The notes: generated from the letters alone by a model not told the origin. Counted from the first letter of the stretch, positions 10,163 to 62,091 are shown. The stretch is DNA of 64,000 nucleotides from an uncultured Candidatus Saccharibacteria bacterium (GCA_964462215.1 CAYWVZ010000002.1:2880-66879); one strand, 5' to 3'. Numbers and translations are program-made.

Positions 10163-10781
10163 GCTGCGTAATCACCGGTTGTTCGGGCTGTAATACTGTG
10201 GCCCGCCCGGCTGCTACCTGACGAATAATATCTTCAATCCAATGATAGTGGGTACACCCCAATACGATAACGTCGGCACCTGCCTCACAGACCGCATCAA
10301 CACGTTGCCGGATCTGTTCGCGATCAACAGTATTGGTTTCGATCATATATGACCAATCGCTGCAATCCGGTTCAAGCACCTGTATGCCCTTGGCGTAGGT
10401 GTCTTTGAGCCAGGCGTAGCGTTTACTGGCCAGGGTAGTGGGCGTGGCACAAACAGCGATAATGCCTGTTTTAGTTGCCTCGGCGGCCGGCTTAACCATT
10501 GGCTCCATGGCAATAAGCGGTACTGGTACTTTTGCGCGCAATTGGTCAATGAGGGTGGTGCTAACGGTATTACAGGCAATCACGATAACATCACACTTTT
10601 CACTTAACGTGTTAAGTATTGGCAGAACTAATGTATAGAGCTCCTCTGGTGATTTAGTGCCATACGGTACGTGTTTGGTATCGTTGACGAACAATACTTT
10701 TGCGTCAGGCATGGCTTTCTCGATGGCGTTAGCCACCGATTTCCCCCCGATACCAGAGTCAAATACTCCAATAGTGGTCAT
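10134..10781 (-). CDS. murI: Glutamate racemase MurI.
   Basis: IGVFDSGIGG, ACNTVST, LGCTHYH motifs. Start at 10781 with GGAGG RBS. Convergent 29-bp overlap with murD. Confidence 0.9.
   Translation of the reverse strand: MTTIGVFDSGIGGKSVANAIEKAMPDAKVLFVNDTKHVPYGTKSPEELYTLVLPILNTLSEKCDVIVIACNTVSTTLIDQLRAKVPVPLIAMEPMVKPAAEATKTGIIAVCATPTTLASKRYAWLKDTYAKGIQVLEPDCSDWSYMIETNTVDREQIRQRVDAVCEAGADVIVLGCTHYHWIEDIIRQVAAGRATVLQPEQPVITQLKRVLEQRP
10602..10617. repeat. 16-bp palindrome ACTTAACGTGTTAAGT (copy A, inside murI).
   Basis: Read directly from the sequence. The flank ...TATTG is shared with copy D. Confidence 0.9.
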
Positions 10782-11605
10782 AGTTCCTCCTTTTGCCGGG
10801 CGCGGGCTGCCCGGATAACGTTGTCGAACAGGGCGCACACGGTTAGCGGCCCTACACCGCCTTTCTCGGGCGTGATAGTAATGCCGGGCAGCCCGCGCAC
10901 CTCCGGTGCGACGTCGCCAATCAGGCCGTTACTGTCGGTTGCTACCCCAGCGTCAACAATCACAGCCTCAGGTTTGACCATTTGAGCAGTAATCAGGCCA
11001 GGTACACCGGTGGCGCAGACCAGCACGTCGGCCTGACGGGTCAGCGAACTTAAGTTATCAGTATTTTTATCAGCCACCGTCACCTGCAAGCCGGACTTTT
11101 CCCATATATGCGCTAGCGGCCGACCCACTAAACGGCCGTGTCCTACGATAACCAGCTTTTTGCCTCGCAGCTCAATGTTATAGCCGGCCAGCAGCCAGTT
11201 GATAGCCATAGGTGTCGGCGCGTCAAACCGGCTGCCCTTGGCTAAGCCGTCAACGTCTTTGCCGGCCGCTACGGCATTCAGCACCTCTGTAGTTTGCGAC
11301 GGGTCGGGCAGCGGTATTTGCACGATAATTCCGTGTACCGCCGGATTATCGTTCAATTCGGCCAAGGTGGCCAAAACGGCTGTCTGTTTAATCGTGTGGA
11401 CATCCACTTCAATCAAGATGTCTTCGCCGTACTTTTGCTTAAGGCGCATGTAGCTGTCGACCACCGGATCAGGGTTGGTGCGGATGATCGCCAGCCGCGG
11501 TACCACACCGCCAGCCTGACGCAAAGCCCGCACATCGCGGGCCTGCCGTTCTTTGACAAATTCGGCTAGCTCTTTACCGTTTAACAGTTTATGCATCGGG
11601 GTCAT
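10778..11605 (-). CDS. folD: Bifunctional methylenetetrahydrofolate dehydrogenase/cyclohydrolase FolD.
   Basis: Full-length FolD-like sequence (VGxGxxVGxPLA, GGVGPLT). Stop overlaps the murI start (ATGA). Confidence 0.9.
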   Translation of the reverse strand: MTPMHKLLNGKELAEFVKERQARDVRALRQAGGVVPRLAIIRTNPDPVVDSYMRLKQKYGEDILIEVDVHTIKQTAVLATLAELNDNPAVHGIIVQIPLPDPSQTTEVLNAVAAGKDVDGLAKGSRFDAPTPMAINWLLAGYNIELRGKKLVIVGHGRLVGRPLAHIWEKSGLQVTVADKNTDNLSSLTRQADVLVCATGVPGLITAQMVKPEAVIVDAGVATDSNGLIGDVAPEVRGLPGITITPEKGGVGPLTVCALFDNVIRAARARQKEEL

Positions 11606-11672
11606 TGTAGCATGAAAACACCCCGTCTCTATTGAGGTACGGGGTGCTCAAGGTGGCTATGGGCCAGGGTAT

Positions 11673-12176
11673 TTAGGCGGCCGGTGCTACGCTGCCCAGG
11701 TCGGTCTTTTTCTTGGTACCGCTGTACTTAGCGTCACCAAAGCCGAGGATCAAGAGGCCGATAATCGAAAATATGATCAGGCCAAAGATCGCAAACACCG
11801 GACTTTTACCGAAGCGCCTCGCCAGTTCCAGCATAGCTATAATGAACAGGACGAAGTACAGTGCCGAGGCAATCAAGCCCACAATCGGGATCCAGGTTAT
11901 CAAGATCAGCAAAGCCCACCAACCGGGTTTGCCAGAGATTTCAAACAAAGTCCACATGTTGTAAACAGGAATAATCGCCTTCCAGCCTTTTTCGCCGGCT
12001 TTGTCGAAGATTTTCCATGTTGCTACAATGCCAAGAATACCGAAGATAACACCGATGATGACAGCGATAATGACTCCGGCCGCGATACCGCCATTGACAT
12101 CGCCGTTAGTTGTTATGTTGCTACTAGTAAGCGTAGTTGTTGTCTGCGCTATAAGATCGAGCATACTGCCCTCCAT
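11673..12176 (-). CDS. Small multi-pass membrane protein, DUF5684-like.
   Basis: WKIFDKAGEKGWKAIIPVYNMWTLFEISGKPGWWALL signature. Four hydrophobic helices. Confidence 0.55.
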   Translation of the reverse strand: MEGSMLDLIAQTTTTLTSSNITTNGDVNGGIAAGVIIAVIIGVIFGILGIVATWKIFDKAGEKGWKAIIPVYNMWTLFEISGKPGWWALLILITWIPIVGLIASALYFVLFIIAMLELARRFGKSPVFAIFGLIIFSIIGLLILGFGDAKYSGTKKKTDLGSVAPAA

Positions 12177-12317
12177 TTGTTAATGTTAGTTGGAGTATAC
12201 CATAACCAAAATAAAAAATCACAAGCGGTACGAGTAATATTTACACCGACCTCTGTATCTGTTATAATTTGCACGCTTCCCGCGTTAAAGGTCGTATTGT
12301 CAAAAACACGCCGCGAC

Positions 12318-12394
12318 GGGCCATTAGCTCAGCTGGTTAGAGCACCTGCCTCTTAAGCAGGGTGTCCAGGGTTCGAGTCCCTGATGGCCCTCCA
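12318..12394 (+). tRNA. tRNA-Lys (anticodon CTT), 3' CCA encoded.
   Basis: GGGCCATTAGCTCAGCTGGTTAGAGCACCTGCCTCTTAAGCAGGGTGTCCAGGGTTCGAGTCCCTGATGGCCCTCCA. Cloverleaf folds by eye. Anticodon loop CTCTTAA. Confidence 0.85.
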
Positions 12395-12451
12395 ATAAAG
12401 TTCATACTTTAACAGAGACAATTCGTCTCTGTTTTTTGTTATAGTTAGTCT

Positions 12452-13042
12452 ATGAAAAGAATATTATTATTCTCAGTACTCACCGAAAGTAACCGTAGAT
12501 CCGTTTTAGGCCAACTATTCCCCTCAGCCATACAAAATAAAGTATTCTCCTACATGCCAAGTAATGGTGTTAAAGACTCCGGGCCCTATATCGAGCAATG
12601 GCGCGCAATCGCTCAAGAATATGGCGCGGGATTCAATGTAATCGATAACTCTGTATGCGATACCGAGGAACAAAGAAAACTACTATCTTCAAACATTATC
12701 CTCATAAGTGGCGGAAATACTTTTAGCCTTTTGCAAAACTTACGAGAATCTGGCTTAGACAAATCAATTGGAGAGTTTATAGAAAAGACGGACTTTGTAC
12801 TTGCGGGTTTTAGCGCTGGAGCACTTGTATTGACGCCAACTATCAAAATATGTAATCTGCCTAACTTCGATGAAAACCTGGTCAAACTTGAGGACTTTAG
12901 TGGGTTAGATATCGTTGACTTTGAAGTATTCCCGCACTATGACAAGCGTCTACAAAAGGCCACATTAGAGAATTACAGAAAAACTACTGCTAATAGAGTG
13001 AACGAAATTACGGATGAGGATTATATAAGTATAGATCGCTAG
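12452..13042 (+). CDS. Peptidase S51 family (dipeptidase E / cyanophycinase-like).
   Basis: ILISGGNTFSLL and GFSAGALV motifs. Confidence 0.75.
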   Translation: MKRILLFSVLTESNRRSVLGQLFPSAIQNKVFSYMPSNGVKDSGPYIEQWRAIAQEYGAGFNVIDNSVCDTEEQRKLLSSNIILISGGNTFSLLQNLRESGLDKSIGEFIEKTDFVLAGFSAGALVLTPTIKICNLPNFDENLVKLEDFSGLDIVDFEVFPHYDKRLQKATLENYRKTTANRVNEITDEDYISIDR

Positions 13043-13134
13043 ACACTTTTATTTCGGTTGCGATAGCGTGTACTATGGCCCTCCAAATGTAAGCGCTTTA
13101 TTTACCTATCCTTTCCCGTTATAATAGGGTTGTT

Positions 13135-13356
13135 ATGAAGCAGTCAACCTACCAATCAGTCGTGTATCAAGAGGGCGAATACTACGTTGCCCAGTGTCTT
13201 AATGTTGATATTTCGAGCTTTGGCGATAACGAACAAGAAGCGCTCGCCAACCTGCAAGAGGCGCTCGCGTTATACTTGGAAGACGCCCCTAAAACTACTA
13301 AGGCTATTATCGTAGAGCATCCGACCGTTCATACGTTCCGTTTGCAGCATGCCTAA
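13135..13356 (+). CDS. hicB: HicB-like antitoxin (UPF0150 type).
   Basis: Small acidic protein immediately upstream of, and overlapping, the HicA toxin gene. EGEYYVAQCLNVDISSFGDNEQEALANLQEAL. Confidence 0.6.
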   Translation: MKQSTYQSVVYQEGEYYVAQCLNVDISSFGDNEQEALANLQEALALYLEDAPKTTKAIIVEHPTVHTFRLQHA

Positions 13357-13555
13357 ACTGCTCTCCTCAAAACAGGTTATTAGAGTTCTAGAAAAGCATG
13401 GATTCATGTTTGTTTCTCAGCGCGGTAGCCACGCCAAGTATCGCAAGGGCTCAGCAACTGTTATCGTGCCTACACCAAAGAAAGAAATACCACTCGGCAC
13501 GCTGCGCTCTATCATCCGGCAGTCTGGCTTGGACAGTAAAGCTTTCATAAACTAG
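13349..13555 (+). CDS. hicA: HicA mRNA interferase toxin.
   Basis: KQVIRVLEKHGFMFVSQRGSHAKYRK is the YcfA/HicA signature. Confidence 0.8.
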   Translation: MPKLLSSKQVIRVLEKHGFMFVSQRGSHAKYRKGSATVIVPTPKKEIPLGTLRSIIRQSGLDSKAFIN

Positions 13556-13640
13556 TTCCAATAGCTTCCACGATGGCCCTTCAGGCCTAGGCACTTCCGG
13601 GCGCCTTTTTATTATGCTTGTGGTTGCAACTCATTGACGG

Positions 13641-13901
13641 ATGATAGAAAATAGTATGGTGCCTGAACAACCCGTGGCCTTACAGCTCGAATCGTCTATA
13701 CCGCCCGCCTGTTCAGGATGCGAAACGGCAGAGAGAGTCTGCGCCACCATAGCTAAAGAGGTGCTATCCGGTAAAACTGAGTTGGCTCAAGCAAAAACAA
13801 AACTGGAACAAGACTTGCTAAAAAATTGCCCTGGAAAGATTATGCGGCCGGCGGGTTGGGGCCAGGTGGTAATTTCATGCCGTTACGAAGCTGGAACCTA
13901 G
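13641..13901 (+). CDS. Hypothetical 86-aa protein.
   Basis: ORF only. Confidence 0.3.
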   Translation: MIENSMVPEQPVALQLESSIPPACSGCETAERVCATIAKEVLSGKTELAQAKTKLEQDLLKNCPGKIMRPAGWGQVVISCRYEAGT

Positions 13902-13990
13902 CCGCGACCACGCCTACTACAATCCTCTGGGTACCAGCGTCGTAGAAGACTCTCCTGGGAGTCTTTTTTGTTTGGTATAATAATGAGCCC

Positions 13991-14401
13991 ATGCCAGAGA
14001 TAAAAATTGTAGCCAAAGTATTTGTCATCAACCCAAAAGGCCTGATCCTCACTCTTCAGCGCAGTAAAACCGATCACATCAGACCCTTGGAATGGGATCT
14101 GCCGGGCGGCAGCGTAGACTACGGCGAAGACCCCACAGACGCAGTAGTAAGAGAAGCAAAAGAAGAAGCCGATTTGAGCTTAAAGGATGTCCAGATATTC
14201 GCTACCAAAACTACGAATAATGGCAACTACGTTGTCAGGCTGCTCTATTGTGCACACACAAACACCGACTCAGTGACATTGAGCCCTGAGCACGGCGATT
14301 ACAAATGGGTAACGAGACCTGAATTTAACGAGCTGGACATCCCCGACTACTACAAGAACTGTTTGCAGCACTTGCCCGAGCAGCCGCGACAACTCCCATA
14401 G
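13991..14401 (+). CDS. NUDIX hydrolase.
   Basis: Nudix box GGSVDYGEDPTDAVVREAKEEADL. Confidence 0.8.
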   Translation: MPEIKIVAKVFVINPKGLILTLQRSKTDHIRPLEWDLPGGSVDYGEDPTDAVVREAKEEADLSLKDVQIFATKTTNNGNYVVRLLYCAHTNTDSVTLSPEHGDYKWVTRPEFNELDIPDYYKNCLQHLPEQPRQLP

Positions 14402-14482
14402 CAGCCCTGGGGTTCATCAAAGTATTGCCTTTTTGAGATGTGGTATAGTAGAACCATAAGCGTAAATCGTAAAGGAAAGTAT

Positions 14483-15106
14483 ATGAAATTATCACATGAT
14501 CAACGGGGTGGCCTGCCGCCGCTACTCATCATCTTATTAGTATTGTTAATCGCCTTGCTGGGCTTTGCCGGCTGGAAGGTGTGGGACAACAACCGCAACA
14601 ACCAAAAGGTTGCCGAATCGAGCGAAACCGCCGTGGTAGAAGAAGACGTTGCTATCATCCAGCCAGCCAGCGGGCTATATGGCGTAGCCTTACCGGCCGG
14701 GTGGGTCACTAACACCTGTAGCGACGGTGTTGACATCCTCATGCTGGCACCAAATGAAGAATTGTTGGGTGCTTGCAACACCGAATCGTTCGGCACGGTG
14801 TCTATTACCGCTAACGAGGGTGACGGCCGAGAGAGCGAAAGTGTTTTCGTTGACGACCCGATGTTTAGCGACGTTACCTACAACAGCGACATTAACGTTA
14901 ACGGATTGCCGGGCGTAAAAGTTAGCTACACCGTAGCCGAAGAGTCGCTACTGGGCTACCCGCCGGTAGGTACCCACATCATTATGTACCAGCTGTACGA
15001 CAGCACGAACGGACAAACCTACATCGTTGCCTATCGCCAGCTGCCTGACCAGCCGGATAACACCGCTATCTTTACAGAGATTGTTGAATCGTTCGAACTA
15101 GTGTAG
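14483..15106 (+). CDS. Membrane-anchored/secreted hypothetical protein.
   Basis: N-terminal TM LPPLLIILLVLLIALLGFAGW. Start at 14483 with AAAGGAAAG RBS. Confidence 0.45.
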   Translation: MKLSHDQRGGLPPLLIILLVLLIALLGFAGWKVWDNNRNNQKVAESSETAVVEEDVAIIQPASGLYGVALPAGWVTNTCSDGVDILMLAPNEELLGACNTESFGTVSITANEGDGRESESVFVDDPMFSDVTYNSDINVNGLPGVKVSYTVAEESLLGYPPVGTHIIMYQLYDSTNGQTYIVAYRQLPDQPDNTAIFTEIVESFELV

Positions 15107-15110
15107 ACCC

Positions 15111-21685: not shown

Positions 21686-21694
21686 GTTACCCCC

Positions 21695-22859: not shown

Positions 22860-23456
22860 CTAACTATCATCACTCGTGGGTTGGTTTTGACGCGAAGGCG
22901 GCAGGGATTTTGGGGCCGGTTCGGTGTGGGCTAGAGTTTGCTGCAGCACGTTGAGGACGCTTTTGGCATGGTCGCGGCTCATACCGACGCGGGCTACTAT
23001 TGACGGCTGGCCACCGGAATTGCCGGTATTGCCCGGGTTCTGTAAAAAGTTCATCACCACGCCGTGATTGTTGATGGTCACGTTGACCATATCGGTGTAC
23101 ATAACCCTGTTGTCGTGCTGCATAACCATGACTAGCGGCTTCATGGAGTTGGTTTCGTCAATCGGCAAAGGGTTATTAGCGTTAACGTTGGCGCCCGGCA
23201 AACGTTGCTGGTCATATCCGGCCAGCTCCCACAGCTGCAGGGCCTCTTCGTCTTGCGGGTCAAAATAGCTGATTAGCAGTAGCAGAACATCTTCGGCTGG
23301 ACGATGTTCGCCCTGTTCGATACGCACCAGCAGGTCGGGGTCAATTTCAACGGCGCCCGATACCTCTACGACGCTCTCGTGCAGTTTCTCGCGCAGCGAC
23401 TTCAAACGATGTCCTAGGTTTTTATATGGTCGGTTGTGTTTTGCTGGCTCACTCAT
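22860..23456 (-). CDS. XRE-family helix-turn-helix transcriptional regulator.
   Basis: LGHRLKSLREKLHESVVEVSGAVEIDPDLLVRIEQGE. Confidence 0.6.
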   Translation of the reverse strand: MSEPAKHNRPYKNLGHRLKSLREKLHESVVEVSGAVEIDPDLLVRIEQGEHRPAEDVLLLLISYFDPQDEEALQLWELAGYDQQRLPGANVNANNPLPIDETNSMKPLVMVMQHDNRVMYTDMVNVTINNHGVVMNFLQNPGNTGNSGGQPSIVARVGMSRDHAKSVLNVLQQTLAHTEPAPKSLPPSRQNQPTSDDS

Positions 23457-23523
23457 ACGCTACATCCATGGTACGCTGCCCGGCCTAGGCAATGCAAGCA
23501 AAAGCGTATACTATTTTAGGCAG

Positions 23524-24564
23524 ATGAAGATTTCCATTTCCGAAAATGTTTCGTTGAAGCAGTATTCCACCATGCGATTGGGCGGTTTGGCCCGGTATAT
23601 GGCGACGGTGAGGAGTGCCGACGAGGCCGCGGAAGCCGTGGCGTGGGCACGACAGCGCGAGTTGCCGTTTGTGGTAATCGGCGGCGGCAGCAACGTCATC
23701 TGGACCGATGCCGGCTTCCGCGGCCTCGTCATCGTCAACCGGATTGCCGGCTTCTCTACAGAACCGCTGGACGAACATGATGCGCTGTTCACCTTTGGCG
23801 CCGGTGAAGACTGGGATGAGCTGGTGCAGCGTACGGTAAGCATGGACTATAGCGGCCTGGAACTGCTGTCATGGATCCCTGGCCGAGCCGGCGCCACGCC
23901 CGTCCAAAACGTCGGCGCTTACGGCTACGAGATTGCCGACGTGCTGGTGTCGGTCGACGCCATTGACACGCATCAGGACGATCAAATGGTCACTATTGCC
24001 ACTGCTGACTGCGGCTTCGGCTATCGCAGCAGCCGCTTCAATGGCGTCGACCGCGGGCGTTTCTTCATCCTGGCCATAACCGTCAGGCTCAGCAAACACC
24101 ATCTCAAACCGCCTTTCTACTCCTCTATCCAAGATTACTTGCAGGAGCGCGGCATCACCGACTACACGCCGGCCGTTATGCGCGAAGCCGTCATCACAGT
24201 GCGTAAAAAGAAGCTGCCCGACCCCGACGAAGTCGCCAACAACGGCTCATTTTTCGCCAACCCCATAGTCAACCACACGCAGTTCGCGGACCTGCAAGAA
24301 CGCTACCCGGACATCGTGCATTGGCCGCTCGACGAGGGCCGGGTCAAACTATCCGCGGCCTGGCTGATCGACCAGGCCGGCTTCCACGACTATCACGACG
24401 CCGAAACCGGCATGGCCACCTGGAATAAGCAGCCGTTGGTACTGATTAACGAACACGCCCGTTCCAGCGGGGATCTGATGAAGTTTAAGGCCAAAATAGT
24501 CGACACCGTACAAGATAAGTTCGGTATAGCCCTCCATCAAGAACCGGAACTCATCGAAGCCTAA
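23524..24564 (+). CDS. murB: UDP-N-acetylenolpyruvoylglucosamine reductase MurB.
   Basis: FAD-binding LGGLARY...VIGGGSNV and MurB C-domain. Confidence 0.9.
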   Translation: MKISISENVSLKQYSTMRLGGLARYMATVRSADEAAEAVAWARQRELPFVVIGGGSNVIWTDAGFRGLVIVNRIAGFSTEPLDEHDALFTFGAGEDWDELVQRTVSMDYSGLELLSWIPGRAGATPVQNVGAYGYEIADVLVSVDAIDTHQDDQMVTIATADCGFGYRSSRFNGVDRGRFFILAITVRLSKHHLKPPFYSSIQDYLQERGITDYTPAVMREAVITVRKKKLPDPDEVANNGSFFANPIVNHTQFADLQERYPDIVHWPLDEGRVKLSAAWLIDQAGFHDYHDAETGMATWNKQPLVLINEHARSSGDLMKFKAKIVDTVQDKFGIALHQEPELIEA

Positions 24565-24590: not shown

Positions 24591-24600
24591 ACTTAACATG

Positions 24601-24606
<6 letters not shown>
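24591..24606. repeat. Perfect 16-bp palindrome ACTTAACATGTTAAGT (copy B, at the glyA stop / murB-glyA convergent junction).
   Basis: Read directly from the sequence. Preceded by a partial extra half-site CTTAAC. Confidence 0.9.
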
Positions 24607-25878
<1,272 letters not shown>

Positions 25879-25974: not shown

Positions 25975-27498
25975 ATGTTGACAACCAACCAGAAAATTGG
26001 CCAACTTATTTACCAGATACGACAAGAGAGAGGGCTAACTCAGGCCGAGTTTGCCCGCCGCTTGAGTACCAGCCAGTCGGCCGTCAACCGGATTGAACAC
26101 GGCAAGCAAAACCTGAGCCTGGAAACACTGGGGCGCATCAGCGAAGTTTTACAGAAACCACTGATTACCATCAGTGAGGGTGCCGTAAACCTGAACATCG
26201 AGGGCGGACACGAACTGCACGGCACGATTACTCTTAAGACCAGTAAGAATGCCGCCGTGGCCCTGATTTGCGCCAGTTTGCTCAATAAGGGCACCACGAC
26301 ACTTAAGAATATCGCCCGGATCGAAGAAGTTAACCGCTTGGTTGAAGTGTTGAACAGCATTGGCGTACACACACGTTGGCTGGCCGGCAACGACCTCGAG
26401 ATTAAGCCGCCGGCCGAGCTCGACCTGGATAAAATGAATAAGACCGCCGCCCGCAAGACGCGCAGCGTGATTATGTTCATCGGTTCCCTGATGCACCTGA
26501 CGAATGATTTTAAAATCCCCTATGCGGGCGGCTGCGAGCTTGGCCGGCGGACAGTGGCACCGCATCTCTATGCCCTGCAGGAGTTCGGCGTTGAAGTCTT
26601 TACCCGCACTGGGCATTACCATGTTACGGTCAACAAGCAGGTACCCAAACGCCCCGTCGTCCTTTACGAATCGGGCGATACTACCACCGAGAATATTCTG
26701 CTGGCAGCCGCCCGTACCGAGGGCGAAACAGTCATCAAAATGGCCAGCGCCAATTACATGGTGCAGGATCTCTGTTTCTTCCTGCAAAAATTAGGCATCA
26801 AGATCAGTGGCATCGGCACCAGCACCTTAACTGTGCACGGCGTAGCGAATATCAAGAAAAATATCAGTTACACGCCCGGCGAAGACCCGGTCGAAGCCAT
26901 GACGTTCATCGCGGCTGCCATAACGACCAACTCTAAGATTACAATCAAGCGCGCACCTATCGAGTTTCTGGAGCTGGAACTGCTCAAGCTTGAAAAAATG
27001 GGTCTTGATTACACCATAACCGAGCCGTACAAAGCCGCCAACGGGCATACCGACCTGGTCGACCTAACCATCAAGAAGCACAACGGTCAGCTCACAGCAC
27101 CGGTGGAAAAGATTCACCCCAACGTCTTCCCCGGCCTAAACATCGACCATCTGCCGTATTTCGTACCCATCGCCGCCGTGGCCCGCGGCCGCACGCTTAT
27201 CCATGACTGGATTTATGAAGACCGGGCATTGATGTACACCGAGATGAAGAAGATCGGCGTCAATATCGAAATGGCCGACACCCACCGCGTGTATGTCACC
27301 GGCCCGACCACGTTCAGAACCGCCGACCTGGTGGCGCCGAGCGGTATCCGGCCGGCCGTTATGTTACTGATCGGCATGTTGGCCGCCCCCGGCACTTCCA
27401 TGCTGCGCAATGTCTACACCATCAACCGCGGCTACGAAGACCTGGCCGAGCGCCTTAATTCGCTCGGCGCCAAGATCACCGTCATTCACGAACTATAA
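25975..27498 (+). CDS. murA: UDP-N-acetylglucosamine 1-carboxyvinyltransferase MurA, with an N-terminal XRE-type HTH domain of about 70 aa fused in frame.
   Basis: HTH: IRQERGLTQAEFARRLSTSQSAVNRIEHGKQNLS. The MurA core starts at LNIEGGHELHGTITLKTSKNAAV with catalytic Cys in YAGGCELGRR. No alternative start lies between the domains. Confidence 0.85.
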   Translation: MLTTNQKIGQLIYQIRQERGLTQAEFARRLSTSQSAVNRIEHGKQNLSLETLGRISEVLQKPLITISEGAVNLNIEGGHELHGTITLKTSKNAAVALICASLLNKGTTTLKNIARIEEVNRLVEVLNSIGVHTRWLAGNDLEIKPPAELDLDKMNKTAARKTRSVIMFIGSLMHLTNDFKIPYAGGCELGRRTVAPHLYALQEFGVEVFTRTGHYHVTVNKQVPKRPVVLYESGDTTTENILLAAARTEGETVIKMASANYMVQDLCFFLQKLGIKISGIGTSTLTVHGVANIKKNISYTPGEDPVEAMTFIAAAITTNSKITIKRAPIEFLELELLKLEKMGLDYTITEPYKAANGHTDLVDLTIKKHNGQLTAPVEKIHPNVFPGLNIDHLPYFVPIAAVARGRTLIHDWIYEDRALMYTEMKKIGVNIEMADTHRVYVTGPTTFRTADLVAPSGIRPAVMLLIGMLAAPGTSMLRNVYTINRGYEDLAERLNSLGAKITVIHEL

Positions 27499-39404: not shown

Positions 39405-40982
39405 CTAGCCTTCGACGACTTCGTCCAGCTCGGTGTCTTGGCTACTGTCGGGCAGCCAGACGTATGCCACAATCGCCGAGATGCCGATGATGATCGAACC
39501 GACAATCAGCGAGAAGCGGAAACCGCCCATCCAGGCCACGCGCGCAGCTTGCGCCAGGTTCGCGCCCAAAGCTTCCGGCAGCTTGCCGGCCACCGCTAAC
39601 GCGCCCGCCAGTGAGCCTTCGGCGACCACTTTAACGGCGTCAGGCGCGCCGGCCAAGGCCGGCGCGATCTTAGCGGAATAATGCGAGGCCAGCAAGCTGC
39701 CGAGGATCGCTACTCCTAGCGATCCGCCCAGTTCACGCGTAGTGTCATTCATGGCTGAGCCCATACCGGCCCGCGCCCGCGGCACGGCAGACATAAGCAG
39801 GTCTGTGGTTGGCGACATGGCAATACCCATGCCGGCCGCGGCAATACACATAGCGGTAACAAGCCGCAGGTACATCGGCTCCACCCCCATAGTTGCCAGC
39901 ACCAACACACCGATGCCTAGCAACAGCATGCCGCCCGTCACCACCAACCGCTTACCGAACCGTTTAACCAGCTTCGGCGACATAACAGAGGCTATCACAA
40001 TCACAAATGAAAGCGGCAGCATGCGAACCGCCGACTCAAGCGGCGAGTAGTCGTACACAAACTGCATGAGCTGGCTCATATTAAAGAACATTCCCATCAG
40101 CGCAAAGAACACCAGTATAAGTACGGCCGAGCTAATACCAAAGGCCGGTATCTTGAACAGGCGCACATCCAGCATGGGGTGTTTGTTTCGCAACTCCCAC
40201 CAGACAAAAACACCCAGAACCAGCAAGCCAAGTCCGGCAACTCCTATGGTTGCCAGCGAAAGCCAGCCGTGTGTCGGCGCCTCGATAATCGCATACACTA
40301 AAGACACCAACCCTATGACGGACAGGCCCGAGCCGACCAGGTCAAGTTTGGTGTGGTTGGGGTCGCTGGTGCGCGGCAGCAAGTACACTCCCGCGACTAA
40401 AGCCGCCAGGATAATTGGCAAGTTAATCAAAAAAACGCTGTGCCACGAACTATGCTCGAGTACAAATCCCGACACAAGCGGCCCCAGCGCAGTACCGGCG
40501 CCGCTGATTCCGGCCCAGATAGCGATTGCTTTGGCTCGCTCTTTGTTGGGAAAGACATTAGTCAGAATCGAAAGCGTAGCCGGCATGATCATCGCCCCGG
40601 CCAACCCCATTACCGCCCGGGCAGCAATCAATTGGTTGGCGGTTTGCACGCCAAACGCCGCATAGGCTGAAGCACCCGCGAACAATACCAGGCCAAGTTG
40701 CAATATTCCCTTGCGGCCAAAACGGTCACCCAAACTACCGGCCAAAAAGAGGAAGCCGGCAAACACCAATGAGTAGGCATCCACCAGCCATTGCAGCTGC
40801 GCGTTAGTGGCTCCGAGTTCAGAGCTCAAGCGGGGCAAGGCAACGTTCAGCGACGTGTTGCCGACCATCACAATCAGCAGCGATAAGCAAAGCACGCCAA
40901 GCGTGTACCAACGCCGCCGATAGACTTCTTCCGAAACGTGTATTTTTCTCTTTGGCAAGATCCGTTTTAATTTTTCTTTCAC
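39405..40982 (-). CDS. MFS transporter, DHA2 (EmrB/QacA) 14-TM drug:H+ antiporter family.
   Basis: 14 hydrophobic segments. GDRFGRK motif after TM2. Confidence 0.85.
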   Translation of the reverse strand: MKEKLKRILPKRKIHVSEEVYRRRWYTLGVLCLSLLIVMVGNTSLNVALPRLSSELGATNAQLQWLVDAYSLVFAGFLFLAGSLGDRFGRKGILQLGLVLFAGASAYAAFGVQTANQLIAARAVMGLAGAMIMPATLSILTNVFPNKERAKAIAIWAGISGAGTALGPLVSGFVLEHSSWHSVFLINLPIILAALVAGVYLLPRTSDPNHTKLDLVGSGLSVIGLVSLVYAIIEAPTHGWLSLATIGVAGLGLLVLGVFVWWELRNKHPMLDVRLFKIPAFGISSAVLILVFFALMGMFFNMSQLMQFVYDYSPLESAVRMLPLSFVIVIASVMSPKLVKRFGKRLVVTGGMLLLGIGVLVLATMGVEPMYLRLVTAMCIAAAGMGIAMSPTTDLLMSAVPRARAGMGSAMNDTTRELGGSLGVAILGSLLASHYSAKIAPALAGAPDAVKVVAEGSLAGALAVAGKLPEALGANLAQAARVAWMGGFRFSLIVGSIIIGISAIVAYVWLPDSSQDTELDEVVEG

Positions 40983-41419
40983 GATTTCCTTTCCCGGTTT
41001 TGTACCGATTGGCTAACCTTTTTTAATAGCATGGTGAGGGTCTTAAGCTCCTGGTCGTCAAGCACCGAAAGCACCTGTGTAATTTTTACGAGCTTGTGCT
41101 GCTTCATGGTGCGCACATTTTTTTGGCCGGCCGGCGAAAGCCGCAGCTTGGTGACCCGCTTGTCGGTTGGATCGGCTTCTCGTTCCACCAACCCGAGCCG
41201 CACCAAAGCCTCTACCAACTGCGTAGCGGCGCCAGGCGTTACAGTGAGTGATTGCGCAAGGTTGCTGACCGTTATCTTTTTATCGTGCCATATACAAAAG
41301 AGCGCTTCCGCCTGGGCGGGCGGCAACCCGTGGACATGGCCTGGCTTGTTCCGCACAATACCTTTGCGGAAATTGATAAAGCAAAACATAATTTCATTGA
41401 TGCTATCTGCCCGTGACAT
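40979..41419 (-). CDS. MarR-family transcriptional regulator, 4-bp overlap with the downstream MFS gene.
   Basis: Winged HTH LAQSLTVTPGAATQLVEALVRLGLVEREADPTDKR. Confidence 0.8.
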   Translation of the reverse strand: MSRADSINEIMFCFINFRKGIVRNKPGHVHGLPPAQAEALFCIWHDKKITVSNLAQSLTVTPGAATQLVEALVRLGLVEREADPTDKRVTKLRLSPAGQKNVRTMKQHKLVKITQVLSVLDDQELKTLTMLLKKVSQSVQNRERKS

Positions 41420-55443: not shown

Positions 55444-55836
55444 TTATTTACGCTGTTTGGTGATATGCACCGGCGCGCCGTATTCGGGTAAGACGGTGGT
55501 GTCATTGTCGCCATTTTGCAATCGAGCCAGGCCGTCCTTGGCCCAGTTTTTGCCGGTTACGCCGACTACCGGGACTTGCAGACCATAGGCCAGAGCATTA
55601 GCGGCGCTGATACCAATCCGTAAGCCAGTAAAACTACCTGGCCCCTGAAACACGATAATCCCTCCTAGAGCTTGCCAGTCGGCTCCGGCCTGCTGCAGCA
55701 ATTCTTCAATCTTATTATGAATAGTCTCGGCCAGTTGCCGGTGCGCCTGCCATGTTTCGTGAGCCACGGGCTGGCCGTTGCGGTACAGGCCCACCTGGGC
55801 TTCGGGTTTATCGGTACGAATGGTTAAGACCAGCAT
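55444..55836 (-). CDS. tsaB: TsaB (YeaZ) threonylcarbamoyl-adenosine biosynthesis subunit, short form (130 aa).
   Basis: MLVLTIRTD...GIIVFQGPGSFTGLRIGISAANALAY. Confidence 0.7.
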   Translation of the reverse strand: MLVLTIRTDKPEAQVGLYRNGQPVAHETWQAHRQLAETIHNKIEELLQQAGADWQALGGIIVFQGPGSFTGLRIGISAANALAYGLQVPVVGVTGKNWAKDGLARLQNGDNDTTVLPEYGAPVHITKQRK

Positions 55837-56307: not shown

Positions 56308-56411
56308 AACCCCCCAATGGTAGCGCGCCGGCTGTGGTAACCGCAAGCTTTAGCGGCGTGACCATTGAGCGAGTGCACGGCAAGCACCAGGTGCGGTATA
56401 CTAAAAAGGTT

Positions 56412-56954
56412 ATGTTACAGCTGAGTAGTGCCCTTGTAAACCGGCCGATTATGAGCCTGCGCACCGGCGGCGAGATCGCCGTTGCTTTGAGTCCGATTAT
56501 CAACCCCAATAACTTGAAGATTGAGGGCTGGTACTGCCAAGACCGCTTCGATAAAAAGGCCAGGCTGGTACTGCTGCCGCAAGACGTGCGCGACATCCTG
56601 CCTCAAGGTATTGTGGTTAACGACCACGACGTACTGTCCGAACCAGCCGAATTAATTCGGCTTAAGCCGGTAATGGATCTGCGGTTTGAACTGATTGGCA
56701 AACCAGTCGTTACCACCGGCAAGAGCCGTTTGGGCAAAGTCAGTGACTATGCCGTTGAGGTTGAAACGCTGTATATTCAAAAGTTCTACGTAGCCCAACC
56801 GCTAATCAAGAGTTTGAGCGGCGGCAGCTTGAGTGTTAGCCGCGACCAAATCGTTGAAATCACCAGCCGCAAGATTGTTATTCAGGAACCACTGCAGCCG
56901 CAACCGGTACAAAACCGGGTTACAGCGCCAGTGCCAGCACCGGCCACACAATAA
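56412..56954 (+). CDS. Tandem PRC-barrel-like protein. Tentative.
   Basis: Two repeats of a small beta-barrel pattern (LVNRPIMSLRTGGEIAV... / LIGKPVVTTGKSRLGKV...). Confidence 0.4.
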   Translation: MLQLSSALVNRPIMSLRTGGEIAVALSPIINPNNLKIEGWYCQDRFDKKARLVLLPQDVRDILPQGIVVNDHDVLSEPAELIRLKPVMDLRFELIGKPVVTTGKSRLGKVSDYAVEVETLYIQKFYVAQPLIKSLSGGSLSVSRDQIVEITSRKIVIQEPLQPQPVQNRVTAPVPAPATQ

Positions 56955-56966
56955 GCATCGTTTTAC

Positions 56967-57587
56967 TTAGCTTTGATCTTGCAATGCGGTTTTAATGTCG
57001 TCGTAGCGGAATCCTTGGCGCAACAGGTAGGCAATGAGTTTTTGATCATCCTGATAGCGCGGCTGAGAACGTTTTTTGGCGGCTAGTTGGCGAATGGTTT
57101 CGGTTTCGCCGGCGCCCTCGTTTTGATTGGCGTTATCTTGCGCCAACACCTGGGTGATTACCTCCTCGTCAACACGTTTTTGCAGGAGTTCCTGGCGCAG
57201 CCGGCGCAGGGAAGTGGGCTTGAGCTGGCGCCGGCTGCGCACCCACGCCTCGGCAAAGGCCGCATCATCCACGTAACCCTTAATACTTAACGTGTTAAGT
57301 ATTGCGTCGATAGTGGGGGAGTCGTACTGTTTGCGGCGCAGGTAATCTTCGACCTCCCACCGGCTGCGCGGCCGCCGAGCCAGATAATCTAGCGCCCGCA
57401 TATAGGCTTTGTCAGCTACAGCCACTCGTTTGAGCTCCTCTAGCTCGGCGGCCGTGTACTCCCGGCCAATCCGTAAACCGCTGCGTAAAAGCTCCGCTTC
57501 GCCCAAACTAAAAACATAAGCCCCGTCAATATACACAGAGTAGCGGCCGGCCCGCTTAACCTGCTGCTTAATATCCGTGACTTTCAT
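56967..57587 (-). CDS. recX: RecX recombination regulator.
   Basis: RecX three-repeat helical pattern (YALRYLARRPRSRWEV..., DDAAFAEAWVRSR). Start MKVTD at 57587 overlaps the yoeB stop (ATGA). Confidence 0.85.
   Translation of the reverse strand: MKVTDIKQQVKRAGRYSVYIDGAYVFSLGEAELLRSGLRIGREYTAAELEELKRVAVADKAYMRALDYLARRPRSRWEVEDYLRRKQYDSPTIDAILNTLSIKGYVDDAAFAEAWVRSRRQLKPTSLRRLRQELLQKRVDEEVITQVLAQDNANQNEGAGETETIRQLAAKKRSQPRYQDDQKLIAYLLRQGFRYDDIKTALQDQS
57285..57300. repeat. 16-bp palindrome ACTTAACGTGTTAAGT (copy D, inside recX).
   Basis: Read directly from the sequence. Confidence 0.9.
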
Positions 57588-57853
57588 TCGGCGTAATGGT
57601 ACCGGCATGCAATCACGCAAACCGCCTCTTGATTAACTGCGTAAACCAACCGGTGTTCACTGGTTATACGGCGCGACCACAGGCCAGTCAGGTTTTCTTT
57701 GAGCGGCTCCGGTTTGCCGGTGCCGGCAAAGGGGTCTTTCTGTGTTTCAATGATTAGCCGAGTTATCTTTTGGGCCGTTTTCTTGTCGGTCTTTTGCCAA
57801 AACGTATAGTCACTCCAACCGGTTGCCGTAAAGTGGACGGAGCGCTTAGCCAT
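57584..57853 (-). CDS. yoeB: YoeB/Txe toxin (type II TA).
   Basis: FTATGWSDYTFWQKTDKKTAQKITRLIIETQKDPF...LWSRRITSEHRLVY. Confidence 0.85.
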   Translation of the reverse strand: MAKRSVHFTATGWSDYTFWQKTDKKTAQKITRLIIETQKDPFAGTGKPEPLKENLTGLWSRRITSEHRLVYAVNQEAVCVIACRYHYAE

Positions 57854-57855
57854 AG

Positions 57856-58113
57856 CTACATTAATTCACTGACAGGTTTCTGGATAGTTTTGCCGGCACG
57901 TAGCTGTACTAGACCCGTCTCAAGGTGCTTACGCATGGCCGGACTCTGATTAAGGTACTCTGTTTCAGTCAGGGCATTGTATTCGTCGAGTGGAATAACT
58001 ACCACCGACACGCTGTCGGTCCGGGTAACAATTAGCGGCTCCTGGTCTTGGTCAACCGCATCAATGTACTGTTTTAACGACTTACGAAAATCTGATACTG
58101 AGGCAACTTTCAT
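57856..58113 (-). CDS. yefM: YefM/Phd antitoxin.
   Basis: MKVASVSDFRKSLKQYIDAV...EPLIVTR...VVVIPLDEYNALTET. Confidence 0.85.
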   Translation of the reverse strand: MKVASVSDFRKSLKQYIDAVDQDQEPLIVTRTDSVSVVVIPLDEYNALTETEYLNQSPAMRKHLETGLVQLRAGKTIQKPVSELM

Positions 58114-58167
58114 AGTATCTCCTTGTACATAACATTGTACATTAGTACGTACGTAGCAGCAAGCCTA

Positions 58168-59223
58168 TTACTCCTCTGTTTTGGCCGCAGCACGCACTTG
58201 TTTAGAGATTTTATCAAGCACTTTGGGGTTGGCTTCAAGATATTCTTTGGCAGCTTCGCGGCCTTGGGCGATTTTTTCGTCGCCGTACGCGAACCAGGCA
58301 CCGGATTTATCGATAATTTCGTCGGCTACCGCCAGATCGAGCACATCGCCGCTAACGCTAATCCCCTTGTTGTACATAATATCGAATTCGGCCTGACGGA
58401 ACGGCGGCGCGATTTTGTTCTTGACCACTTTTACCCGAACCCGGCTGCCGATGATTTCTTCGCCTTGTTTGATCTGCGAGATGCGGCGGATATCCATACG
58501 TACTGAGGCATAGAACTTGAGAGCGTTACCGCCAGTGGTGGTTTCGGGGTTGCCAAACATCACGCCGATCTTCATGCGGATCTGGTTAATAAAGATAACC
58601 GTGGCTTTGGACTTGTTAATAACACCGGTTAGCTTACGCAGAGCCTGACTCATAAGGCGGGCTTGCAAGCCCATGTGCGAATCACCCATGTCGCCTTCGA
58701 TCTCGGCACGCGGTACCAAAGCGGCTACCGAGTCAATGACGATCAGGTCGACGGCATTACTGCGCACTAGGGTTTCGACAATTTCCAATGCTTGTTCGCC
58801 GCTGTCCGGCTGACTCAGCAAAAGGTTGGCCGTATCTACACCGATACGCTGGGCGTAGGCCGGATCCAGCGCGTGTTCGGCATCAATAAAAGCTGCCGTG
58901 CCGCCCTGTTTTTGGACCTCGGCAATGGCGTGCAGTGTTAGCGTTGTCTTACCGCTGGATTCGGGGCCGTAGACTTCGACCACGCGGCCCTTTGGGATAC
59001 CGCCGCCTAAGGCTATGTCCAAAGAGATACTGCCGGTCGGGATACATTCCACCTGTACCTTGTACGCTTCGCCCAACTTCATAATCGAACCTTTGCCAAA
59101 CTGTTTTTCGATAGTCTCTAGAGCCAGCCCCAGGGCTTTGGTTTTACCCTCGGTTTGGGCGTTGTCGGCCTTTGGTTTGGGTGCATTGTCTTTTGTTGCC
59201 ACAGGTTCCTCCACGTGTGTCAT
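58168..59223 (-). CDS. recA: Recombinase RecA.
   Basis: [10 protein letters not shown] Walker A, full-length RecA. Start at MTHVEEP (59223). Confidence 0.95.
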
Positions 59224-59350
59224 TAGTACCCACCAGTATAGACGGCGGCGCGTACCCTGACAACGACAAGTTGACTCCACCCCTGTTTGATTTCCTAATT
59301 TTTAATTAAGTGTTTAGATTTTTAGGGGCTTTTTTGGCAGCCCGGCAAAT

Positions 59351-59884
59351 ATGCTACAATTACCAACAGAGACAATGCTTATGCTCACACGATTATTTGC
59401 CCGACGTCTGCCATCACAAAAAGGTTTTACCGTGCCAGAATTGCTGCTGATGGTGCTGGTGATTATCATTTTGGCCAGTTTGGTGTTGGTGAATTATCAG
59501 GCGGCCGCGGCCAAACGGCGCGACACCCAGCGTATTAACGATATTAACTCTATCTACAGTAAACTGGAGACATATTACAACGAGAAAGATGCCTATCCGG
59601 CGACGTTTTCGGCCGAGGATTTGTTTAACATTGACCCGAATAGCCTGAAAGACCCCGAGGGCCGGACTATCGACATCCACGTTCCGGTAGCCGGTGCGAC
59701 TGCCGCCCAAGCTGTTGCCAGCCCCACGGCCACCAGTCCGTCAGATTATCTGTATGTGCCCTACCCGACCGGCTGTACTAACGAAGCCAACAACTGTACC
59801 GGCTTTATTCTCAAAAGCTATATCGAAAAACCGACCAGCACCACGCCGAACCCCTACATTAAAGTCGGCCTGAACAATAATTAA
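59351..59884 (+). CDS. Type IV pilin / pseudopilin-like protein (prepilin N-terminal cleavage/methylation domain).
   Basis: ...KGFTVPELLLMVLVIIILASLVL N-terminal motif (G|FT-x-x-E-L hydrophobic helix). Confidence 0.65.
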   Translation: MLQLPTETMLMLTRLFARRLPSQKGFTVPELLLMVLVIIILASLVLVNYQAAAAKRRDTQRINDINSIYSKLETYYNEKDAYPATFSAEDLFNIDPNSLKDPEGRTIDIHVPVAGATAAQAVASPTATSPSDYLYVPYPTGCTNEANNCTGFILKSYIEKPTSTTPNPYIKVGLNNN

Positions 59885-60477
59885 GACTGATTGTGGGCTG
59901 GCGGCGGCTGAACGGCCGGAATGGTTGCGTTGGCGGCATCCGGCAGGTGCAGGAATTTCTGGCGGGCATCCAGAAGGATCTTGCCATAGTAATTAGGGTT
60001 CGGGCAGTAGATAAAGCGAAAGTTGTTCTGCTCGCCGGCGGTTTCTACGCGCAGCGTACCGTAACCGAACAGGTGGGCAAAGATACCATGCTGGTCGGCC
60101 GTGACATCTTCGACATTAGCCATCGACAACTCCGAGACCTGGCGGCTAAACAGGCCGCGCTGCAACACCTGGGTGATGTTTTTGTCGCTGATAATCAGCC
60201 GGTTCTGCCAATAGACTTGGGTTGCCACCACTAGTATTAACAAGCCCAGTATCACTACCAGAAAGGTGCCGACACCGACGTAAACACCAGTATCGCCGGC
60301 CAGACCGTCACCAGTCAAGCCGGGCAGCAGGAACACCGTTAGCCCGACGGCCGCTATCAAGCCTATAAACACCTCTACATAGATGACTACCAGGCCGAAG
60401 ATGTGACGGCGAACGTTGGCCAATAACCGTTCGTCTCTATTGATGCCTTCGATGCCGCTGTTGGGTCGGGGATGCAT
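59881..60477 (-). CDS. Bacterial PH-domain (bPH_2/YdbS-like) membrane protein.
   Basis: Two TM segments followed by a PH-like domain (NITQVLQRGLFSRQVSELSMANVEDV...GTLRVETAG). Confidence 0.55.
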   Translation of the reverse strand: MHPRPNSGIEGINRDERLLANVRRHIFGLVVIYVEVFIGLIAAVGLTVFLLPGLTGDGLAGDTGVYVGVGTFLVVILGLLILVVATQVYWQNRLIISDKNITQVLQRGLFSRQVSELSMANVEDVTADQHGIFAHLFGYGTLRVETAGEQNNFRFIYCPNPNYYGKILLDARQKFLHLPDAANATIPAVQPPPAHNQS

Positions 60478-60496
60478 AGCCGTATTATAGCAAGCT

Positions 60497-61507
60497 TTAC
60501 AGTAGTGTTTGGTTTTTACCGAGGTGTTTGTAGGCTTTGTGGGTAACTTTTCGGCCGCGCGGCGTCCGCTCCAGCAAGCCAATCTGCAAGAGATACGGCT
60601 CGTGAAAATCTTCAATGGTAGAACGCTCCTCGGCAGTTAGCGCGGCCAGCGTTTCCACGCCCACCGGCCCGCCGTTATAGTTGTCAATGATAGCCATCAG
60701 CAGCATGCGGTCGGCCGGATCCAGGCCGAGCTCGTCAATTTCCAGCAAACCGAGCGCCTTGCGGCTGATGACCGTGTCGATAATGCCATCGCCATTAACG
60801 TCGGCGTAATCACGTACCCGTTTGAGCAGACGGTTGGCAATCCGCGGCGTCAACCGGGCCCGTTTGGCCAATTCGTGGGCAGCTCCTTGGTCAATCGGTA
60901 CGCTTAAAATCTTGGCAGCCCGCTCGATGATCTGCTGGACTTCTTCTGGCTTATAAAACTCCAGGCGGTGAATCATGCCAAAACGGTCGCGCAGCGGCGC
61001 CGCCAGGGCACCCGTCCGCGTGGTAGCACCGATAATCGTGAACTTGGGCAGATCCAGGCGCAAGCTGCGCGCACTCGGCCCTTTGCCGAGCATGATATCC
61101 AGCTTAAAATCTTCCATGGCGCTATATAACACCTCTTCGACGCTGCGGTTCAGGCGATGGATTTCATCAATGAAAAGGATATCGCCGTCTTGTAGGTTAG
61201 TCAGCAGACTAGCCAGGTCGCCGGCCCGCTCAATGGCCGGCCCGCTGGTGACCCGGATTTGCGCACCCATTTCGTGGGCAATAACTGTGGCCATGGTAGT
61301 TTTGCCCAAACCCGGCGGGCCGTACAGCAAGATGTGGTCAAGCGGCTCGCCGCGTTTCTGGGCGGCCCTTATAGCCAACTGTAAATTCTGCTTGAGCCGT
61401 TGTTGACCGATGTAGTTCTTGAAGTCCTGCGGCCGCAAGGTAATTTCCAGCTCGACTTCGGCCGGATCGTCATCGCTGGTAGTGGTAATAATTCGCTCAA
61501 TCGCCAT
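60497..61507 (-). CDS. ruvB: Holliday junction helicase RuvB.
   Basis: [18 protein letters not shown]. Confidence 0.95.
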
Positions 61508-62091
61508 TACTGGGTTCCTTTGAGGGCTTGTGTAATACGTTGTTCGGTTGGCAGAGCGGCATCGACGCCGTCCAAGGCTTTGGCGGCGTCGGCAAGCGTG
61601 TAGCCCAGGCTAACCAGGCCGGCTACCGCTTCGTCTTTGACGAGCAGTCCTTCGGACTGGAGCAGGCCAGCGGCGCCCAAATCCACGCCGGCCAGACCCA
61701 CTTTGTCTTTGAGGTCGACAACCACGCGCTCAGCCACCCGCTTGCCAACGCCGCTGGCCTGCTGAATAAATTTGACATCGCCGGCGGCGATGGCCGTTTT
61801 AACCTCTTCGGCCGAGCCAATACTTAACATGTTAAGTGCCATGCGGGGTCCGACGCCGTTGACTGTCAATAGCAGCTCGAACAAAACCTTAGTCGGCCGG
61901 CTGGCAAACCCGAACAGGTCGTGCGAAGCTTCGCGGATGTACTCATATATATAGACCTTGGTGGTTTCGCCTACCGTCAAGCGGCTAAAATCCTCGGCCG
62001 TTACGAACAGGCCGTAGCCGACGCCGCTAACGTCCAGCACGACTATATCGTCCAATTTCTCACCGATTATTCCCTCAAGCGTAGCAATCAT
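61507..62091 (-). CDS. ruvA: Holliday junction DNA-binding protein RuvA.
   Basis: MIATLEGII...GVGYGLFV..., HhH motifs [12 protein letters not shown]. Confidence 0.9.
61822..61837. repeat. Perfect 16-bp palindrome ACTTAACATGTTAAGT (copy E, inside ruvA).
   Basis: Read directly from the sequence. Confidence 0.9.

Follow-up and report, generated by a model that had tools for sequence, protein, structure and literature searches.

A palindrome conserved within genes of Saccharimonadales as a candidate operator of a MarR-family repressor

The zinc repressors AdcR and ZitR of the Streptococcaceae bind, as MarR-family dimers, a 5-2-5 palindromic box (TTAACYRGTTAA) that overlaps the -35 and -10 boxes of the regulator's own operon (PMC6372160). 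Here we analyzed a related palindrome, the 16-base ACTTAAC-NN-GTTAAGT, which occurs five times in a stretch of 64,000 nucleotides from an uncultured Candidatus Saccharibacteria bacterium (GCA_964462215.1, CAYWVZ010000002.1:2880-66879; hereafter the window, numbered from its first base), and which we propose to be a site for a MarR-family repressor encoded elsewhere in these genomes. The 5-bp arms TTAAC/GTTAA, the 2-bp spacer and hence the MarR-type operator geometry are common to both. However, the arms of the Saccharimonadales site are longer (ACTTAAC/GTTAAGT plus AT-rich flanks, 16-22 bp), its centre is AT, GT or AC where that of the AdcR/ZitR box is YR, and it differs further in its mostly intragenic copies, in the lack of conserved metal ligands in the associated protein and in the lack of zinc-uptake genes nearby. 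SlyA, with its operator TTAGCAAGCTAA of the same 5-2-5 type, RovA and MepR likewise combine a 5-2-5 palindrome, an autoregulated regulator and co-regulated efflux pumps, but the arm sequence is another one for SlyA and MepR and their sites are located in promoters. We know of no description of order-wide conservation of intragenic copies for SlyA, RovA or MepR.

Sites involved in chromosome architecture offer a second comparison. parS (Streptomyces, Bacillus), SBS and matS are palindromes of 13-16 bp that are present in a few to tens of copies, often in open reading frames (ORFs). They are shared between species, and a dimeric helix-turn-helix (HTH) protein binds them; SlmA illustrates that a transcription-factor fold (TetR) can take an architectural role. 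The Saccharimonadales site differs from these in that it also appears to be a promoter operator and in that no ParB gene is linked to it. A third comparison is with the DNA uptake sequences (DUS) of Neisseria and the uptake signal sequences (USS) of Pasteurellaceae, which are also over-represented oligomers tolerated in frame in housekeeping and genome-maintenance genes of a competent lineage, but the Saccharimonadales motif is two to three orders of magnitude rarer.

Exact matches to ACTTAACNNGTTAAGT are found at positions 10602, 24591, 24652, 57285 and 61822 of the window, against 0.00 expected in dinucleotide-preserving shuffles, which agrees with the original prediction of five copies far beyond chance. 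No extra copies were found in the window at one or two mismatches (shuffle expectation 0.17 at ≤2 mismatches). The GC content given in that prediction, ~55%, was too high, as values along the window are ~0.46-0.56 with a mean of ~0.52. The three copies with an AT centre are perfect palindromes, and the other two, A and D, have in common a GT centre, the flank ATTG and the string ACTTAACGTGTTAAGTATTG, both as first described. All five copies show a Y...R flank pattern, with a pyrimidine on one side and a purine on the other, and an alignment of their 200-bp contexts revealed no likeness beyond ~3 bp on either side; they are therefore not copies of a larger element.

Copy A (ttcACTTAACGTGTTAAGTatt, 10602..10617) lies in murI (minus strand, ORF 10134-10838, probable start ~10781). 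Copy B (aacACTTAACATGTTAAGTgtc, 24591..24606), an 18-bp perfect palindrome placed between the convergent genes murB (23434-24564, plus) and glyA, holds the TAA stop codon of glyA (24601-24603; gac ACT TAA). Copy C (tttACTTAACATGTTAAGTgtt, 24652..24667) is in the 3' end of glyA (minus, 24601 to ~25878, relative position 0.95), copy D (aatACTTAACGTGTTAAGTatt, 57285..57300), which is the extended 22-bp palindrome save for its centre, is in recX (minus, 56967 to ~57587), and copy E (aatACTTAACATGTTAAGTgcc, 61822..61837) is in the helix-hairpin-helix codons of ruvA (minus, 61507-62091). Pfam confirmed murI (Asp_Glu_race), recX (RecX_HTH1-3) and murB directly, and ruvA (RuvA_N, HHH_5, RuvA_C) via a near-identical contig that carries the same palindrome; glyA was identified from the SHMT signature THKTLRGPRGG. 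Exact look-ups of the window's proteins found no record for RuvA and, for RuvC, only two Logan contigs of 1.9 and 4.5 kb. The four copies that had been placed inside ORFs (A, C, D and E) are indeed there and are read in frame as L-N-(T/M)-L-S, but the fifth is not outside glyA, since it contains the stop. Because all four host genes run on the minus strand, the peptides are I-LNTLS-E (murI), T-LNMLS-K (glyA), I-LNTLS-I (recX) and ALNMLSI (ruvA), and not the LNVLSI named in the original prediction. The palindrome contains TAA in two of its three frames, in both orientations, so that only the frame N-CTT-AAC-NNG-TTA-AGT, which encodes L-N-x-L-S, is open. The encoded peptides fall in native helices, such as the helix-hairpin-helix of RuvA, and comparison with homologues of ruvA, recX and glyA identified the copies as substitutions within native codons, not insertions.

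Selection on the DNA itself is most visible in ruvA, which holds the most widely conserved copy (E). Among ruvA loci drawn from metagenomes by protein similarity, the palindrome (≤1 mismatch) is present at the same codons in ~36 of 59. Exactly GCA-CTT-AAC-xTG-TTA-AGT is used by 43 of the 63 ruvA genes that encode ALN[MV]LS, where the codon usage of the same loci predicts this string in 3.2e-4 per gene (binomial P ~1e-134, a value that overstates independence). The GGN, GTN, GGN and CCN codons just upstream use all their synonymous alternatives; as these neighbouring sites are randomised, synonymous positions are therefore saturated. The copy is retained in genes whose GC content at third codon positions (GC3) ranges from 0.31 to 0.69, and the site is bimodal, either intact or fully drifted (4-7 mismatches). 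The drifted sites are concentrated in one RuvA clade (L239, L244, L247-249 and L256) in which the recX copy is also missing; contigs of the motif-less clade include Ga0207658_10000003, Ga0210040_10000012 and Ga0207701_10000003. Where ruvA lacks the copy, none was found elsewhere within 20 kb either. In recX, motif-bearing lineages have ILN[TMKR]LS encoded by ATA-CTT-AAC-NNG-TTA-AGT, whereas the motif-less clade has ITERLR at the same position, and the DNA signal has therefore shaped the protein. The suggestion that the signal acts on DNA and is not a common protein motif was thus correct, given the codon-level selection in ruvA, and copies are indeed kept at orthologous positions in relatives (ruvA, recX, glyA and murI), one of the two outcomes for which a check had been suggested.

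The pattern of change also bears on whether the palindrome works as RNA. Changes in the site are one-sided and never compensatory, and C7 and G10, which would be loop bases of a hairpin, are invariant; two DNA half-sites recognised by a protein are therefore indicated, not an RNA stem. An AU-rich hairpin of 6-9 bp is possible in the mRNA, and three of the five copies reach folding Z-scores of -2.1 to -2.9, but this hairpin would be weak (-4 to -9 kcal/mol), it lacks a U-tract and it matches no Rfam family. The miniature mobile or REP-like element also offered in the original prediction is at odds with flanks unrelated beyond ~3 bp, with the replacement of native codons in place of insertion and with the location of ~75% of copies in frame inside genes. 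We regard a hairpin or a mobile element as highly improbable. The palindrome is very likely a protein-binding site under purifying selection across Saccharimonadales, an order of tiny episymbionts, and it is retained in essential genes too.

We scanned one genome per species, 185,579 species in all, with YACTTAACRTGTTAAGTR. At least 119 stretches matched, the large majority from metagenome-assembled genomes (MAGs) of Candidatus Saccharibacteria/Saccharimonadales; the motif is thus found across many species of this order and is not peculiar to the window. The 129 exact sites give the extended consensus aaTACTTAAC(AT > GT/AC)GTTAAGTAtt, of which aaTACTTAACATGTTAAGTAtt is the 22-mer form. Among the matches listed, single MAGs have up to at least five strict copies and long contigs of 260-780 kb have at least one or two each. 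In 630 kb of DNA from relatives, fetched via ruvA or marR and not via the motif, there are 31 exact copies, and only one of them is neither a ruvA copy nor a marR-promoter copy. The 90 stretches from IMG/VR viral contigs have a single chance match each, and no multi-copy element was found among these contigs. Among the matches listed from outside Saccharimonadales are a few scattered chance ones plus one conserved Bradyrhizobium site. Searching the literature for the motif sequence itself yielded no relevant paper. Gene calls in all fetched loci are greedy ORF calls, and many of the statistics pool related sequences.

The Bradyrhizobium site, the 18-mer gatACTTAACATGTTAAGTgaa, is single-copy and lies at the same conserved locus in ~19 species among the matches listed (L091, L103, L113, L115, L122, L126, L127, L130, L141, L145, L152, L154, L160 and others), and it may be an unrelated MarR/AdcR-type operator. 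A few MAGs labelled as other phyla (L109 and L128, Verrucomicrobiia; L117, Dormiibacterota; L194, Limnocylindria) have Saccharimonadales-type ruvC-ruvA-ruvB or ksgA-marR loci with the palindrome and are probably mis-binned contigs.

These densities speak against a DNA-uptake signal that would bias transformation towards self DNA, as first proposed. It is true that comEC and type IV pilins are present in Saccharimonadales (a pilin at 59351-59884 in the window, and comEC beside ruvC-ruvA in relatives), and that copies in ruvA, recX, recA and comEC recall the bias of Neisseria DUS towards genome-maintenance genes. However, DUS and USS number hundreds to thousands per genome (about one per kb), and they have neither symmetry nor a tie to the promoter of a regulator. 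Here the density is 100-1000 times too low, with 5 copies per 64 kb in the window (~1 per 13 kb) and at least 1-2 strict copies per 260-780 kb contig in relatives. The motif is a palindrome, which to our knowledge no DUS or USS is, and there is no reason why an uptake tag should coincide, in all 10 orthologues of a regulator gene, with the -35 box of the promoter of that gene, as described below. An uptake function thus seems exceedingly unlikely.

A candidate for the protein that binds the site emerged from the loci found by the motif. In six of them (L116, L137, L156, L193, L194 and L198), a MarR-family gene lies directly downstream of ksgA, and all six have a copy 40-60 bp upstream of the marR start. 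A profile of five MarR proteins recovered a large orthogroup, with the top 120 matches above 213 bits, and further marR loci were drawn by exact protein look-up, independently of the motif. Four of these (P0098, P0113, P0060 and P0077; 4/4) have the palindrome upstream with one mismatch, A5 to G, which creates TTGAC, and another (P0116) has two overlapping degenerate copies upstream. The sole sigma-70-like promoter in each marR upstream region is TTGAC(A/G)-N17/18-TA(A/C)AAT, and its -35 hexamer coincides with palindrome positions 3-8 (L278, L279 and L280, with the same layout in L274). Overall, the palindrome lies over the -35 box of the gene's own promoter in 10 of 10 marR orthologues, four of them found independently of the motif. 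This predicted layout is the textbook arrangement of an autoregulated repressor, and MarR proteins are near-universally autoregulated.

The gene order around this regulator is pyk-pgk-tpi-x-uvrD-rpfB-like-ksgA-marR, usually followed by a gene for a major facilitator superfamily (MFS) transporter. Pfam assigned MarR/MarR_2 to all orthologues, their recognition helix QTEASISRQIK is nearly invariant, and profile searches of the PDB matched MarR/MepR/SlyA structures (down to 7e-17), the best solved relatives being 3nrv and MepR. The ksgA-linked MarR is probably the binder, given that all 10 orthologues have the site at their promoter, that its geometry is that of a MarR-type operator and that MarR proteins almost universally regulate themselves. 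A C-terminal extension with paired cysteines (VC-x-GDK-x-GRC / C-x8-C) was seen in the MarR proteins of L193, L194, L274, L276 and L278-L280. It is missing in those of L116, L156 and L198, and could be a redox- or metal-sensing tail.

Since the arms and spacing of TTAAC-N2-GTTAA are identical to those of the AdcR/ZitR box, the site might instead be a genuine AdcR box that reports metal homeostasis, as part of a zinc-responsive AdcR/ZitR-type regulon. A second protein would fit such a regulon: locus L099 encodes an unrelated MarR-like protein (3625-4074, minus) with His/Glu-rich helices (ERAEAHAEYLNH). The gene for this protein is divergent from an alpha/beta-hydrolase-like gene, and the promoter region common to the two carries the exact palindrome, 47 bp upstream of the MarR-like gene, which also speaks for a link between the site and MarR-type genes. 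The ksgA-linked MarR, however, reaches only 16-32 bits against the AdcR equivalog model NF038251, which has a cut-off of 175. The alignment of its orthologues has no invariant His, Cys or Glu, the best solved relatives are not AdcR or ZitR, and no zinc transporter was seen beside any copy, the transporter downstream of marR being of the MFS type. A zinc regulon is thus quite unlikely. A special kinship of the recognition helix to AdcR was also considered and was not supported, as AdcR ranked 16th (E = 0.13).

We propose the following mechanism. The palindrome would be a high-affinity site for a dimeric DNA-binding protein, namely a MarR-family winged-helix repressor that is conserved in Saccharimonadales and encoded at pyk-pgk-tpi-...-uvrD-rpfB-ksgA-marR, outside the window. 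The repressor would shut its own promoter, with the -35 hexamer sitting within the palindrome, and purifying selection would retain the same site at ~5-15 further chromosomal places per genome, mostly in coding sequence; in the window these would be murI, the end of glyA (two copies), recX and ruvA. Once bound, the intragenic copies may act as ligand-releasable roadblocks or as occupancy sites that modulate recombination, cell-wall and one-carbon operons, which would be the simplest extension of the model to these copies. We give this explanation as a whole somewhat better than even chances.

Several observations weigh against it. The ksgA-linked MarR orthologue was not found in the 64-kb window by tblastn. 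The window's own MarR (40979-41419) was rejected as the binder, as it is 21% identical, belongs to a different subfamily and has no copy at its promoter. MarR-MFS pairs usually regulate locally, through one or two sites. The share of intragenic copies is 74%, and a location in a promoter region, found for marR, tsaB, murJ and a few others, does not hold for most copies. In the window, three of the four locations fall where convergent transcription units end, with no gene beyond them to control. No promoter-like or terminator-like consensus was found over any of the five window copies, and classical promoter repression therefore cannot explain them. It is also possible that the site could belong to another protein that regulates marR as well.

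The rejected window gene is itself part of a MarR-MFS pair (39405-41419, minus; MarR 40979-41419, MFS 39405-40982) directly downstream of tRNA-Pro(tgg). The promoter of this pair is a TTGACA/TATCAT pair without a palindrome.

The placement of the copies was examined over the Saccharimonadales loci, where 104 copies (≤1 mismatch) divide into 77 intragenic, 7 over a stop codon and 20 intergenic. The non-coding fraction of these loci is 9.7%, and the intergenic and stop-overlapping positions are enriched only 2-2.7-fold over it, because ~90% of the DNA is coding; this enrichment nevertheless counts in favour of an operator. Closeness of intergenic copies to stop codons was dismissed as a signal, because the intergenic spacers are very short and the motif itself contains TAA. 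The copies recur in particular genes. They are found in ruvA at relative position 0.43-0.50 (about 20 loci), in recX at ~0.5 (7 loci; orthologous copies in L172, L195, L200, L204, L207, L208, L225 and L268), in glyA at 0.95 (5 loci; orthologous copies at 0.94-0.95 in L143, L174, L184 and, with 1 mismatch, L147), in folD at 0.28-0.30 (4 loci: L093, L140, L201 and L209, plus the folD stop in L097) and in murI at 0.25-0.31 (2 loci, of which L101 has the same position as copy A). Also recurrent are the body (0.30) and the stop of ksgA, tsaB (in the gene or 2 bp upstream), dus, rluB, tilS, a glycosyltransferase and a murC-like ligase, while recA has a copy at 0.78 in one locus (L190). In comEC, a conserved two-mismatch variant, AGTTAGCNNGTTAAGT, encodes IVS[MVT]LSI. 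The copies in ruvA, recX, recA and comEC hint at a link with recombination and competence, but this recurrence was not counted as a test, as such functional categories make up a large part of reduced genomes. Downstream of the ruvA copy, by ~840 bp and apparently in ruvB, a conserved CCTGAACTTGTTAAGTATT was also noticed (L107 6236, L117 2423, L210 2386, L214 6690 and L221 2664), with its right half-site intact and in a different frame.

Across species, the copy shifts between adjacent positions: folD, murI or the folD stop; the ksgA body or the ksgA stop; the glyA body, the glyA stop or downstream of the HTH gene. A neighbourhood that is conserved while the exact position moves is in keeping with chromosome-architecture sites such as parS (ParB), NBS (Noc), SBS (SlmA) or matS (MatP), and such a role is the main rival to a MarR operator. 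A dimeric protein, possibly the same MarR-like one, would then organise, segregate or protect the chromosome, and the marR-promoter copy would be only autoregulatory. Placement nearly indifferent to coding (74% intragenic against 90% coding) fits this, as do the clustering of five copies within 51 kb here against near-none beyond the ruvA and marR copies in 630 kb of relatives, the change of sign of GC skew at ~12-16 kb of the window, and the fact that the canonical parS (TGTTNCACGTGAAACA) has no match in the window at ≤3 mismatches and none at ≤2 mismatches in 1.27 Mb of related loci. On the other hand, none of the copies was seen to have a homologue of ParB, Noc, SlmA or MatP in its vicinity, the palindrome is unlike parS and shares no half-site with it, and the promoter-proximal copies (marR, tsaB, murJ and a metallopeptidase-like gene) suit a transcription factor. 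The window contains no parB, dnaA or dnaN gene. On balance, we consider an architectural role unlikely.

The location of the copies also separates the proposed MarR operator from the operators of other regulators. An operator was among the ideas of the original prediction, and this part is supported, but the XRE regulators of the window that it named as binders are not. The two candidates, an HTH_31-DUF3467 protein (22860-23456) and an HTH_3-MurA fusion (25975-27498), do flank the murB-glyA pair with copies B and C, and in L147 a copy lies 4 bp past the stop of an HTH_31 gene; nevertheless, the promoters of both XRE genes are without a copy at ≤3 mismatches. As for a LexA SOS box, ruvA, recX and recA are classical SOS genes, but the promoters of recA and ruvC carry no copy, the copies being found mid-gene or at 3' ends, and the arms are N2 apart, unlike the Gram-positive GAAC-N4-GTTC, a mismatch that had been pointed out correctly. 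The half-site reported at ~59306 (ATTAAGTGT) in the recA-pilin intergenic region agrees with the full site at only 9 of its 14 specified positions, a five-mismatch resemblance that is not significant. In the literature, a search on LexA and Patescibacteria brought up mentions in reference lists only. We find an XRE operator or a LexA box very improbable.

Other features of the window were observed alongside. The HTH_3-MurA fusion (25975-27498, plus) is a single ORF in which an N-terminal XRE-type HTH (HTH_3, 2e-15) is joined to a full enzyme of the MurA/EPSP-synthase fold; it is kept in relatives (family F31 in L143 and others), and it is uncommon for a cell-wall enzyme to carry a DNA-binding domain. 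A YefM antitoxin/YoeB toxin pair (57584-58113, minus) lies between recA (58168-59280) and recX (56967-57620) and interrupts what is usually a recA-recX operon. Within 697-8803, three single-domain receiver proteins (6882-7265, 7278-7691 and 8375-8803), all without an output domain, come after a 7TM-GAF histidine kinase. The GC skew turns from positive (to ~12 kb) to negative (~16 kb onward), and past ~37 kb nearly every gene is on the minus strand. These features could point to an origin or terminus of replication at about 12-16 kb, a region that also has a 600-bp gap (13042-13641).

A bolder proposal is that the ksgA-linked MarR is not a local efflux regulator but a genome-wide in-gene binder, with the copies as ligand-releasable roadblocks or chromosome anchors. 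We put this forward tentatively, as a possibility on the doubtful side. If true, these bacteria would have an SOS/competence-like or nucleoid-organising circuit run from inside coding sequences, with palindromes in the codons of ruvA, recX, recA, comEC, glyA, folD, murI and RNA-modification genes, and conserved proteins would have been visibly reshaped by it, as in the helix-hairpin-helix motif of RuvA and in ILNxLS against ITERLR in RecX.

From a biological perspective, almost nothing is known about gene regulation and chromosome organisation in Saccharibacteria and other bacteria of the candidate phyla radiation (CPR); members of the group are now open to genetic manipulation by natural transformation. 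The present analysis adds a putative order-wide pair of cis-element and regulator, a 22-bp site together with a candidate MarR-family binder whose recognition helix is nearly invariant. It also offers what appears to be a natural example of a DNA-binding site that constrains codons, with rare AT-rich codons fixed despite a GC3 of up to 0.69 and the site imposing L-N-x-L-S on unrelated proteins. Should the intragenic copies prove to be functional roadblocks or architectural sites, genes of recombination and competence would be controlled in an unusual way.

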